A stretch of DNA of 64,000 bases, from NCBI GenBank assembly GCA_016699385.1, contig CP064974.1, forward strand, positions 339,042 to 403,041. Reading direction: 5' to 3'. A model generated the notes under the pieces. It did no database searches. It saw nothing but the letters and a program-made list of their open reading frames with translations, and was not told the origin of the DNA. The DNA is from Candidatus Moraniibacteriota bacterium (GTDB lineage: Bacteria > Patescibacteriota > Minisyncoccia > Moranbacterales > UBA1568). This document shows positions 41,370 to 43,952 of the stretch, one piece after another; position 1 is the stretch's first letter; every line of letters begins with the position of its first letter. A program made the translations under genes and the position numbers.

Positions 41370-41398
41370 CTTGCAAAACAAGACAATCTCATTCCCTA

Positions 41399-42067
41399 TT
41401 GACTATGAATTGGAATTCTACATGGGATTTTCTTAATTCAAGTTTCTTTATAAGCATCATTACACTTGCCGTTGGCACGATAGCTTTTTGGCTTTATGAC
41501 AAACAAAAGAAAGATTCAAAAAAAGACGCTGCCAATATAATTCTTCTTGAAATTCAAAGTGCTGAGAGAGTTCTTGGGCAAATAAGTGAAGAGGTTAGAT
41601 CGGGAAAGTTACCAAATAAACTTTTACTTCCTACTGAAAATTGGAGTAAATATAAATATTACTTCGTCAGAGATTTTGACAGAGATGAATGGGATTTAAT
41701 CACAGAGTTTTACAATAATGCGAAATTATATGATGAAGCAGTCATATACAATAACTCACTTTTTCAAAAAAATGAGGAACAAATACGCATAAATATGCTT
41801 CGCACACCAGCAGAGTATATTCGGGAATTTTTAGAAAGTGTTGAGAAAGATTCCCTTACTAACGTCGATGAAAATCAAAGATTAGAAAAGATATTTGAAA
41901 AATCTCAGAAATTCCAAAAAACTTATCTTTCTCGTATTGGGTCTTTATTTTATAGCCCGCAAAAACCCCTTGACGACGCTACAAATGCCTTTAACGGAAT
42001 AAATAGAACGATTTCTCAAACTTCTGTTGGCAATAAACTTAAAAAATTTTCAGGACTGAAGAAATAA
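41399..42067 (+). CDS. Hypothetical protein with an N-terminal TM anchor (low-GC islet)
   Basis: 222 aa with one N-terminal TM helix, then a Lys/Glu-rich helical domain. No recognisable motif. Lies in an AT-rich region directly 3' of tRNA-Gln. Confidence 0.45.
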   Translation: MTMNWNSTWDFLNSSFFISIITLAVGTIAFWLYDKQKKDSKKDAANIILLEIQSAERVLGQISEEVRSGKLPNKLLLPTENWSKYKYYFVRDFDRDEWDLITEFYNNAKLYDEAVIYNNSLFQKNEEQIRINMLRTPAEYIREFLESVEKDSLTNVDENQRLEKIFEKSQKFQKTYLSRIGSLFYSPQKPLDDATNAFNGINRTISQTSVGNKLKKFSGLKK

Positions 42068-42156
42068 ACTAACCTATATGTTTTTATCTTCTATAGAAGA
42101 GTTTCCAACTTTGTTCCATCCAACGACAGACAGACTTAATCAACATATCAACCTCT

Positions 42157-42921
42157 ATGGAACTGCGACCGGAAGTACGATCAGCGAGAGCAGCTGGCCC
42201 CGATAGATTCGAGGGTCATGACGCGTTCAGTGATAAGAGGAGGGGGATAGTGTCCGAATCCGGAGAGATAGATTTCCGTCGTTTCCTTCTTTCTTCCGAT
42301 CTGGAAATACGAAAGAAGCTCCATGATTTGCGGGATGCTGTAGAAAGTTTGCATGAACGATTTCCAGAAATGATTGGATGTACTTTTTTCGGTTCCCAGA
42401 CCAAGGGGTACGCGCAAAAACGATCGGATATCGACGCCTATTTGTTGGTAGATGAAGACACGGTCTCCGACAAAATCCGGACACAGGCTCACGACCTGTC
42501 AATTAATCAAGAACTCATGAAAGAAAGAAGACTTGATGAACTCCATGAGGAGATAGTGAAGTCGCTTCACAAAATCGGACTCAATCTGGGACTGGGATCG
42601 GGGATTGGGATACGATCGATTTCCTGGAAAAAGATTGAACAATTCTGTCAGGGCGACATTCTCGATGAAAATAACCTCGCTGTCATGCACTTGTTCCATA
42701 TGGGAGTCGGAAACAATATCTACTCGCGCAGAGAACAAATCATCTCCACGCTAGAGAACATGGGAGGTGCCGGTGAGCGGCTCTGGACGGTCCTGATGGA
42801 AAAACTTTTTCAGTGGGAAAACAAATTCTTCAATGAGACACTCAAGAAGAAGCGTCGCGAACTTTACCCGAAGACCTTATCGGAAGGAAGGGAATACTTC
42901 CTTAGAAACGCTCCGAGATAA
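42157..42921 (+). CDS. Pol-beta-superfamily nucleotidyltransferase (ANT(4')/KNTase-like architecture)
   Basis: Nucleotidyltransferase motif FFGSQTKGYAQKRSDIDAYLLVDED (GSx9-13SDID, with an acidic third residue), followed by a ~150-aa helical domain. Size and layout resemble kanamycin or lincosamide nucleotidyltransferases. The true start is uncertain, because the 5' end of the ORF is GC-rich. Confidence 0.5.
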   Translation: MELRPEVRSARAAGPDRFEGHDAFSDKRRGIVSESGEIDFRRFLLSSDLEIRKKLHDLRDAVESLHERFPEMIGCTFFGSQTKGYAQKRSDIDAYLLVDEDTVSDKIRTQAHDLSINQELMKERRLDELHEEIVKSLHKIGLNLGLGSGIGIRSISWKKIEQFCQGDILDENNLAVMHLFHMGVGNNIYSRREQIISTLENMGGAGERLWTVLMEKLFQWENKFFNETLKKKRRELYPKTLSEGREYFLRNAPR

Positions 42922-42960
42922 ATACATCCCAACTTCGTCCCAGAGCTCTAGTAGAACCAT

Positions 42961-43518
42961 ATGCGAGAAAAAATCCTCCAGCTAATACAAGGAATCCAGC
43001 CTGTAGATGAGTTTGAAAGAACTCATCAAGAGGATGCTTTGAGATGGATTGAAAGCGGTGTAGAAATATTTCGAATTGAAAAACCTGACAAGCCACCGAA
43101 ACATCTTGTCTCTTATTTTGTTGTGGTGGACATTGGCAATAAGTCAATCCTTCTTGTAGATCACATAAAAGCCGAGCTCTGGCTTCCTGCTGGTGGACAC
43201 ATCGAAAAAGGAGAACATCCCAAAACTACTGTAGAAAGAGAAGCATTGGAAGAACTCAATATCCAATCCAAGTTTCTTAGTGAAGAACCTTTCTTTATAA
43301 CAATTACCACAACCGTTGGGAAAACTGCAGGACATGTAGATGTTAGTCTATGGTATATCCTAACGGCAAATGTCGAAGATCCTATCCGGTATGATTCTGG
43401 TGAATTCAACGGATACAAATGGTGGACATTTGATGAAATTTTAAATAGTGATATCCGATCTTTTGATCCGCACATGCACCGACTAACTCATAAATTAAAG
43501 ACTTGTTTAGGAACCTAG
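42961..43518 (+). CDS. NUDIX hydrolase
   Basis: NUDIX box GGHIEKGEHPKTTVEREALEELNI. Confidence 0.7.
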   Translation: MREKILQLIQGIQPVDEFERTHQEDALRWIESGVEIFRIEKPDKPPKHLVSYFVVVDIGNKSILLVDHIKAELWLPAGGHIEKGEHPKTTVEREALEELNIQSKFLSEEPFFITITTTVGKTAGHVDVSLWYILTANVEDPIRYDSGEFNGYKWWTFDEILNSDIRSFDPHMHRLTHKLKTCLGT

Positions 43519-43553
43519 AATCATCAATTTCATCTCACAACCCCAGCCACTCT

Positions 43554-43897
43554 ATGTTCTACCAAATGAAATTGAATCCGGAGCCGTTCGAGAAGATAAA
43601 AACGGAACTAAGGTTATTGAGATGCGGCTCCATGATGAGAAGAGAAGGCTTCTCAAAGTCGGCGATGAGATAGAGTTTCGACTTATCGACGATGAGGAGA
43701 AAAAGATTCTTACGAAAGTTATCAGTCTCTCGGTGTTTCCTACTTTTCGGGAGTTATTCAGCGCCTTCCCGCCAAATGAATACGGGAGTCTCAGTCAGGA
43801 TGAATATGGGAAAATGCACGACATCTATTCTCCAGAAAAAGAGAAAGAGTTTGGCGTATTGGCTATTCGGATTCAGTTTCTTTCTGAAGTACGCTAA
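43554..43897 (+). pseudogene. ASCH-domain gene interrupted by a -1 frameshift in an A5 homopolymer
   Basis: Frame A: MFYQMKLNPEPFEKIK (then stops shortly after). Frame +2 continues NGTKVIEMRLHDEKRRLLKVGDEIEF..., the ASCH consensus. The junction is the A-run at ~43568-43572 (ataaaaacgg). Confidence 0.5.
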
Positions 43898-43952
43898 AAA
43901 GGTTGATGAGGTAGCATCACAAAATCAGGAGAACATTGTATAATAGGGCCAT

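Follow-up and report, generated by a model that had tools for sequence, protein, structure and literature searches.

Strain-variable, compositionally mosaic genes 3' of tRNA-Gln(CTG) in a Candidatus Moranbacteria genome: probably independent accessory genes rather than a multi-gene system

Gene content and neighbourhood

The window analysed here is a 64,000-nt stretch of a 1.11-Mb contig (CP064974.1) from a metagenome-assembled genome of Candidatus Moranbacteria (Moraniibacteriota, Candidate Phyla Radiation (CPR)/Patescibacteria). The gene order leading up to its tRNA-Gln(CTG) gene is secA, Ham1, a 206-aa open reading frame (ORF), NUDIX, CYTH, tRNA-Thr on the minus strand, prfB, ftsE, ftsX and a hairpin. 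On the 3' side follow ORF-A, which encodes a predicted membrane-anchored protein, a nucleotidyltransferase (NTase) gene, a gene for a 185-aa NUDIX hydrolase (NUDIX-185), an apparent ASCH pseudogene, TspO, an unannotated ORF, HAD and GATase, after which comes a gene for a 1521-aa glycoamylase-family protein on the minus strand. The NCBI records are QQR77858.1 for the NTase ('hypothetical protein'), QQR77859.1 for the NUDIX and QQR77855.1 for FtsE. Coordinates are collected in Table 1.

An earlier note, made from the letters of the window, had reported a drop in GC content right after tRNA-Gln, followed by genes for a 222-aa membrane-anchored protein, a 254-aa NTase, a NUDIX hydrolase and a frameshifted ASCH protein, and had proposed that these form an antibiotic-modification or defence-like module at a tRNA integration hotspot. 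The GC drop and all four genes were confirmed. The module was not: the four genes are not co-inherited in relatives, and no member of the ORF-A family was found near the NTase gene in about 20-25 other loci. The region is probably a mosaic in base composition that varies between strains, made up of accessory genes that are independent of one another and do not form a multi-gene system.

Co-inheritance and strain variation

Handles beginning with L denote fetched loci. About 32 NTase loci were fetched, of which some are duplicates and about 20-25 are distinct. ORFs were called over 4-5 kb on either side of the NTase gene and were queried with a hidden Markov model (HMM) of the ORF-A family, called the TM family here for its transmembrane (TM) helix, and with the NUDIX, HIT, ASCH, TspO and HAD proteins of the window and its relatives. 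The HMM scan gave no match near the NTase gene in the distinct loci other than the window; NUDIX was found in L009 only, HIT in the L003 group only and ASCH in L009 only. Seen from the other side, the NTase gene is present in one of seven TM-family contexts, that of the window. Elsewhere the neighbours of the NTase gene are an overlapping upstream HIT gene with Ham1 nearby (L003 to L007), a 141-aa NUDIX (NUDIX-141, L009), HAD (L011), obg (L008), ruvX with unknown genes (L020), and UDG with PDDEXK (L022). In the L003 to L007 lineage, whose NTase is 58% identical to that of the window, the 144-aa HIT gene runs 22 nt past the start of the NTase gene, an overlap that points to translational coupling, and the Ham1-like gene of L004 lies two genes downstream.

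Close relatives differ from the window by whole genes. In L009 and L010, which are 97% identical over the NTase gene and its flanks, 578 bp containing NUDIX-185 are missing as a clean presence/absence with CCCAG at the flanks, and an intact ASCH gene lies directly 3' of the NTase gene. Upstream of the NTase gene, an unrelated 173-aa TM protein and the 141-aa NUDIX are encoded in place of ORF-A; comparison of ORF-A with the 173-aa protein gave no homology (BLASTP E = 5.3; hhalign probability 0.2%). L002 is 99.5% identical to the window over 41312-45665 and 98.7% identical over 45684-51647, and between HAD and GATase (window 45665/45684) it has an insertion of about 1 kb with two NUDIX genes (141 and 163 aa). 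The variable region is built by gene-sized gains and losses, not by one mobile element.

Variation is also found within genes. In a 4.35-kb comparison of the window with L002 (99.5% identity), 19 of the 21 differing alignment columns fall within a 420-bp tract of the NTase gene, comprising 13 single-nucleotide polymorphisms and a 6-nt deletion that removes 'LG'. The L002 tract is unlike both the window and the L009 alleles and so was apparently imported by recombination. Set against the L009 allele, the NTase gene of the window shows 5 synonymous and 13 non-synonymous differences, a ratio of non-synonymous to synonymous rates (dN/dS) of about 0.7, and every non-synonymous difference lies outside the catalytic core. 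The ASCH gene is split into two ORFs in the window, where an A-run reads AAAAA; it reads AAAAAA in L009/L010, with one continuous ORF. After repair, the product scores 39.5 bits vs a Pfam PF04266 cutoff of 21.2 over 101/103 profile positions (unrepaired 14.9 bits), and the 3' fragment matches phrog_19935 (E = 6e-18). The 1-nt deletion recurs in L002, a contig of a different sequencing run, so an assembly error is improbable, and the gene reads as a recent pseudogene. NUDIX-185 has an intact REx2EE box by sequence reading and would be a house-cleaning hydrolase gained or lost separately, among many local NUDIX, Ham1, CYTH and HAD genes.

Base composition

ORF-A has 32.1% GC vs a window mean of 47.2% (z = -4.0), the minimum of all 669-nt intervals. 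The span 41371-43950, referred to as the islet, has 40.0% GC (z = -2.9), and one other region of that size is equally low, at about 35.3-37.9 kb. GC at third codon positions (GC3) is low in ORF-A (0.26) and NUDIX-185 (0.31) and host-like in the NTase gene (0.51, with 47% GC overall), the 3' part of ASCH (0.48) and TspO (0.53); ftsE, ftsX and prfB have 0.54-0.61. The AT-richness is thus patchy, with foreign codon usage limited to ORF-A and NUDIX-185 and an NTase gene of host composition.

The second AT-rich stretch (about 40% GC) lies at about 35300-38200, beside tRNA-Thr(CGT), and contains a Ham1/ITPase-like gene, the 206-aa ORF, a NUDIX gene and a CYTH-domain gene. Nucleotide house-cleaning genes are dense on both sides of prfB-ftsEX, which makes the adjacency of NTase and NUDIX-185 less meaningful.

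No integrase or recombinase was found among the window ORFs of 41.3-51 kb, and a recombinase was seen in the distant relative L012 only. The 23-nt 3' end of tRNA-Gln has a single occurrence in the window with 3 mismatches allowed, and in 41.2-46.6 kb there are no relevant direct or inverted repeats bordering the islet. With a permissive E-value, Rfam models matched the two tRNAs and nothing else in 38-47 kb, and a pattern scan for promoters and terminators gave counts not above shuffled controls.

Table 1. Coordinates of features in the window and in fetched loci (positions without a locus name are those of the window; +, forward strand; -, minus strand)
Feature	Position	Strand	Remarks
Ham1/ITPase-like gene	35355-35888		second AT-rich stretch
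206-aa ORF	36005-36625		second AT-rich stretch
NUDIX gene	36898-37314		second AT-rich stretch
CYTH-domain gene	37685-38212		second AT-rich stretch
tRNA-Thr(CGT)	38211-38284	-	
prfB	38457-39476		
Terminator-like hairpin	41241-41267	+	3' of ftsX, 5' of tRNA-Gln; pattern scan; splits ftsEX from the tRNA and islet
tRNA-Gln (anticodon CTG)	41298-41370	+	left border of AT-rich stretch; ARAGORN; Rfam RF00005, 60.3 bits
ORF-A	41399-42067	+	predicted single-pass membrane-anchored helical-bundle protein; CPR-wide family without Pfam model; foreign AT-rich codon usage
TYCCAACTTYRTYCCA motif, copy 1 (16 nt)	42103-42118	+	38 nt 5' of NTase start
NTase gene	42157-42921	+	pol-beta superfamily, 254 aa; sub-threshold Pfam Polbeta, NTP_transf_2, MTPAP
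NTase tract differing from L002	42348-42767		
TYCCAACTTYRTYCCA motif, copy 2	42927-42942	+	directly past NTase stop; 18 nt 5' of NUDIX-185 start
Segment missing in L009/L010	42947-43524		578 bp
NUDIX-185	42961-43518	+	185 aa; Pfam NUDIX E = 2.6e-14; present/absent between strains
Motif, degenerate third copy	about 43522-43540		before ASCH
ASCH-domain gene	43554-43897	+	1-nt deletion in A-run 43598-43602; intact in L009/L010
ASCH ORF fragments	43503-43673; 43622-43897		
ORF between TspO and HAD	44297-44944		probable ATG start (MNHRIIHV...) about 44429
Insertion in L002	L002 4349-5387		between HAD and GATase
HIT and NTase genes	L003 2602-3770		also in L004 to L007
Long NTase-family member	L039 3196-4689		497 aa
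Motif copies in L009	L009 1123-1137; 1947-1961		
Motif variant TCCCAAATTTGTCCCAGAG	L011 535-549		upstream of 70%-identical NTase
TM-family gene, L012	L012 6001-6651		context (L012/13): ftsE-ftsX-tRNA-Gln(TTG)-TM-DUF87/HerA-NurA-MTase-serine recombinase
TM-family gene, L014	L014 6001-6651		context: tuf-TM-rpsJ
TM-family gene, L016	L016 6001-6657		context (L016/17): methyltransferase-TM-ABC_tran-MacB/FtsX
TM-family gene, L018	L018 3329-3991		context (L018/19): radical SAM-GNAT-TM, dnaG adjoining
TM-family gene, L052-61			context: TM-HSDR_N_2-CDP-OH_P_transf
TM-family gene, L051			context: inovirus-like Zot/Rep element, then TM

Sequence motif and other gene features

The 16-nt motif TYCCAACTTYRTYCCA consists of two TCCCA-like half-sites 11 nt apart, with one copy on each side of the NTase gene. 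It precedes the NTase gene and whichever gene comes next, which is NUDIX in the window and ASCH in L009/L010. A variant, TCCCAAATTTGTCCCAGAG, is found in L011, and a degenerate third copy stands before ASCH in the window. The motif was found nowhere else in the window and in none of the other 56 fetched loci. Possible readings are an operator, a promoter element or the footprint of cassette insertion.

ORF-A is 222 aa long from a TTG at 41399 and 220 aa from an ATG at 41405, the start in the gene call of L001, a locus from run SRR11674038 that is 100% identical to the window. The unannotated ORF between TspO and HAD (about 171 aa) has no match in Pfam, NCBIfam, PHROGs or PADLOC and is absent from the gene lists of L001 and L002. 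For prfB, the listed release factor 2 (RF2) ORF is 339 aa from a GTG, with database cluster members of 346-362 aa; the short ORF is probably explained by the programmed +1 frameshift that prfB usually carries close to its 5' end.

The NTase family

The catalytic motif of the NTase is intact (G79-S80...S90-D91-I92-D93, GSx10DxD). It agrees with the pol-beta superfamily motif hG[GS]x9-13Dh[DE]h, which belongs on the first two core strands, and it lies on the predicted strands 72-78 and 93-99. An AlphaFold2 (AF2) model built from an 11-sequence alignment (predicted local distance difference test (pLDDT) 85.7, predicted template modelling score (pTM) 0.83) has N-terminal helices at 5-68, core strands at 72-78, 93-99 and 150-155 and a C-terminal helical domain at 157-250, and the alpha/beta NTase core fold is recognisable in the 254-aa protein. 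Across 69 diverse members, G79, S80, S90, D91, F180, R192 and P238 are invariant and R42, F43, P70, G84, D93, L199, G206, W210, E221 and Y237 near-invariant. For the third carboxylate, no conserved acidic residue was found on strand 150-155 in alignments A2 and A4. Candidates are D99, which is nearly invariant in the 11 sequences, and E221, which sits in the C-terminal domain.

Word-index searches gave 4 and then 10 relatives, and family size was taken from an exhaustive profile search, which gave 900 cluster representatives (50% identity) at E <= 1e-3 and 474 at E <= 1e-10. The majority match over their full length and have 210-280 aa. Members come from Taylor-, Lipton-, Andersen-, Doudna- and Saccharibacteria and from the DPANN archaeon GW2011_AR5. 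CPR bacteria and DPANN archaea are host-dependent lineages with reduced genomes. The family had 0 matches in IMG/VR, 0 in 72,556 PLSDB plasmids and 0 in a phage database, and a literature search found no described CPR/DPANN NTase family. Long members carry an extra 200-400 residues (P0166, 548 aa; P0148, 589 aa; and one in L039); their fusion regions gave weak sub-threshold matches that were not used (P0166 to HD_4, E = 1e-3; P0148 to the peptidase-like DUF5700, E = 2e-4).

ORF-A and its family

The AF2 model of ORF-A (pLDDT 91.7) has a single N-terminal hydrophobic helix that runs into a long helix at 15-67, further helices at 95-151 and 158-178, and some shorter ones. The sequence KQKKDSKK after the hydrophobic helix suggests that a single TM helix joins a short N-terminus on the outside to a helical bundle in the cytoplasm. 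A fold search with ORF-A gave generic four-helix bundles and nothing else. All 96 homologues (96/96) are from Patescibacteria and none (0/96) has a Pfam match. IMG/VR gave 1 match in 2.9 million viral contigs, which adjoins phage genes rather than lying within them, and a phage-genome database gave none.

In five hosts the TM-family genes have 32-39.5% GC vs 41-56% for the rest of the locus, and a GC3 of 0.26-0.41 vs 0.41-0.76 for flanking genes; the extreme is L016, with 35% GC in the TM gene and 56% in the remainder of its locus. ORF-A and its L012 counterpart are 62.5% identical, compared with 52% for FtsE and 28% for FtsX. This higher identity, together with TM genes that are AT-rich in every host, fits horizontal spread among CPR bacteria, although the low GC3 could instead be an intrinsic property of the family. 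In the contexts examined the gene is always single-copy and without a conserved partner. FtsEX- or MacB-type ATP-binding cassette (ABC) transporter genes adjoin it in three of the seven contexts, the window counted, and obvious mobile elements in two, namely the serine-recombinase island of L012 and the inovirus-like Zot/Rep element of L051.

Interpretation

Because the four genes are inherited independently elsewhere, the region is read as a patchwork and not as a defence or antibiotic-modification system. In this patchwork, the NTase gene would be a resident with host composition, and ORF-A and NUDIX-185 would be separate arrivals, ORF-A having probably been gained horizontally or carried at insertion hot spots. 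With no four-gene module, the locus should be left out of counts of candidate defence or resistance loci. What value remains lies with the NTase family, which is uncharacterised, and with a TM gene that stays AT-rich across hosts, not with the proposed module.

Several observations weigh against this reading. The 16-nt motif shared by the NTase gene and the next gene, and kept in the 70%-identical orthologue, could indicate co-regulation. The gene next to that of the NTase codes for a nucleotide-handling hydrolase in each of the three closest lineages (window, NUDIX-185; L009, NUDIX-141; L003 to L007, HIT), so that the NTase and a nucleotide hydrolase may have a loose functional link. L009 has a different N-terminally anchored helical protein, without homology to ORF-A, encoded two genes 5' of the NTase gene, and the sampled contexts are limited in number. 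NTase activity itself is less certain without a third invariant catalytic carboxylate on the expected strand.

The intact GS...DxD site makes the NTase most likely an enzyme that transfers a nucleoside monophosphate (NMP). It would bind a nucleoside triphosphate with Mg2+ and pass the NMP to a hydroxyl group of an acceptor held by the family-specific C-terminal helical domain (F180, R192 and P238; W210, E221 and Y237). The acceptor would, as a best guess, be either a small molecule resembling a nucleotide or the 3' end of an RNA, and the enzyme would probably act alone. A tentative proposal, which may well not hold, is that these proteins form a family not described before and new in function, shared by CPR bacteria with at least one DPANN archaeon, in which a canonical pol-beta core is joined to an unmatched, acceptor-binding C-terminal domain, and that NUDIX or HIT genes, which recur beside the NTase gene in its nearest lineages, could reflect a cycle of nucleotidylation and de-nucleotidylation on an organism-specific RNA or metabolite. 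The unannotated family of about 900 clusters is a reasonable biochemical target in hosts whose nucleotide metabolism is poorly understood. The AT-richness of the ORF-A gene regardless of host GC, and its repeated position at insertion-prone sites or beside FtsEX/MacB transporter genes, may stem from gene flow between CPR genomes or from a role as a transporter partner that has gone unrecognised.

In a rival explanation, ORF-A, and perhaps NUDIX-185, may be what is left of a decayed mobile element integrated at or beside tRNA-Gln, or its cargo, with the NTase and ASCH genes as older residents. The GC3 gap between these two genes and a host at about 0.5-0.6, the greater similarity of ORF-A than of FtsE or FtsX to its L012 counterpart, and the clean 578-bp presence/absence of NUDIX-185 with CCCAG flanks are consistent with this, as are the L012/L013 loci, in which the ftsE-ftsX-tRNA-Gln-TM order runs on into AT-rich HerA/NurA/MTase genes and a serine recombinase, and L051, in which the TM gene abuts an inovirus-like element. 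However, the window has neither an integrase nor inverted repeats, the 3' end of the tRNA is not repeated as an attachment (att) site, the TM family is nearly absent from viral contigs and phage genomes, and its low GC3 in every host could be intrinsic instead of a sign of recent transfer, so that a remnant is possible but doubtful. Another rival, an unlikely one, ties ORF-A functionally to the adjoining FtsEX/MacB-type (type VII) ABC transporter instead of to the downstream genes, with ORF-A as a membrane protein that assists or regulates the transporter. An ABC ATPase and an FtsX-family permease do stand beside the TM gene in the window, L012/13 and L016/17, and the synteny is kept between genomes whose FtsX proteins are only 28% identical. 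Against this, an ABC transporter is missing from four of the seven contexts, ftsX and ORF-A are separated in the window by a terminator-like hairpin and a tRNA gene, and the sample is small, with the window and L012 possibly representing one ancestral arrangement. Known FtsX partners of the EnvC/PcsB type are extracytoplasmic coiled coils, which the predicted cytoplasmic orientation of ORF-A would misfit.

Comparison with known systems

The earlier note had likened the NTase to antibiotic nucleotidyltransferases of the ANT(4')/Lnu type and to defence NTases. This held for the pol-beta motif and the core and failed for the C-terminal domain. With family profiles, the best matches among PDB sequences are LinB (3jyy, E = 6.8e-5), ANT(4')-IIb (4ebj, 3.9e-4) and MntA (5.3e-4), and the similarity is confined to profile positions 44-94, the GS...DxD core, where MNT antitoxins score as well as the antibiotic enzymes. 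The NTase shares with LinB/Lnu(B), ANT(4')-I/II (KNTase) and ANT(9)/AadA the two-part layout of an NTase core and a helical C-terminal domain in about 250 aa. Unlike them, it aligns over only about 50 residues by sequence and about 100 by structure (Foldseek vs PDB, best E = 0.014, TM-score <= 0.31), and its C-terminal domain is unrelated by sequence: a profile of that domain alone had no match in PDB (best E = 0.87) or Pfam. Pfam, NCBIfam and PADLOC recognise the core alone, at scores far under curated cutoffs. The NCBIfam scores are 16.5 bits for Lnu(G) and 14.1 for Lnu(B) vs a cutoff of 525, and 12.1 for ANT(4')-II vs 350, all over residues 57-105. An aminoglycoside or lincosamide O-nucleotidyltransferase, with the islet as a small resistance locus, is therefore very unlikely; the distribution of the family, over CPR bacteria and at least one DPANN archaeon, is broad and apparently vertical, and the family has housekeeping-type neighbours, is absent from plasmids, and is represented in the window by a gene of host composition. 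A defence or signalling pair of the Hailong type, in which a nucleotide or oligonucleotide signal made by the NTase would gate a membrane effector and the NUDIX, if it takes part, would tune or degrade that signal, has a still slighter chance. Hailong is a two-gene operon of a TM protein, the membrane channel HalA, and the NTase HalB (PMC13434031, summarising Tan et al. 2025). The window resembles it in having a membrane-protein gene beside a gene for a small NTase (about 230-250 aa), both on one strand and not separated by any terminator-like site; the NTase also has weak PADLOC matches to the defence-candidate minimal-NTase family PDC-S09, and in L012 defence-type HerA/NurA/MTase genes follow the same TM gene. 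The pair is not conserved, however: the TM family and the NTase do not meet in the other loci examined for either, and L009, at 97% identity, lacks ORF-A. The ORF-A model is a generic bundle with a single TM helix, and GC3 values of 0.26 and 0.51 argue for separate histories of the two genes. HalB (9dbj/9dbh) is not a detectable relative of the NTase (sequence E = 0.81 over the 22 residues of profile positions 62-83; Foldseek E = 0.53, probability 0.14, TM-score 0.23-0.26).

The catalytic core of the NTase is similar to that of MNT/MntA proteins (HEPN-MNT type VII; PDB 2rff, 1wot, 5yep, 7ae2). Unlike MNTs, which have about 100-150 aa, the NTase has 254 aa with conserved N-terminal (about 68 residues) and C-terminal (about 95 residues) helical regions, it scores 20 bits vs a cutoff of 60, and no HEPN gene lies beside it in any fetched context; its size and the lack of an adjacent HEPN partner rule out HEPN-MNT membership. 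Membership in CBASS/CD-NTase was ruled out on the cyclase models and the lack of an effector gene. PADLOC, PHROGs and NCBIfam scans of all islet proteins gave sub-threshold core-NTase matches and generic NUDIX and ASCH matches only, in agreement with the statement in the earlier note that no known system matches cleanly. That note had also named two findings that would speak against its proposal, genes that are not co-inherited and a housekeeping enzyme as the best structural match of the NTase; the former was found, and the best match is a bare NTase core instead of the latter. The suggested tRNA hotspot stands in part. Unlike tRNA-linked genomic islands, the window is without an integrase or recombinase and without a direct repeat of the tRNA 3' end, and its composition is a mosaic in which the NTase gene itself is host-like. 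Like such islands, the stretch deviates in composition, lies directly on the 3' side of a tRNA gene and is variable in presence and absence between strains, and at the corresponding site of the distant relative L012 there is an insert with a recombinase gene.

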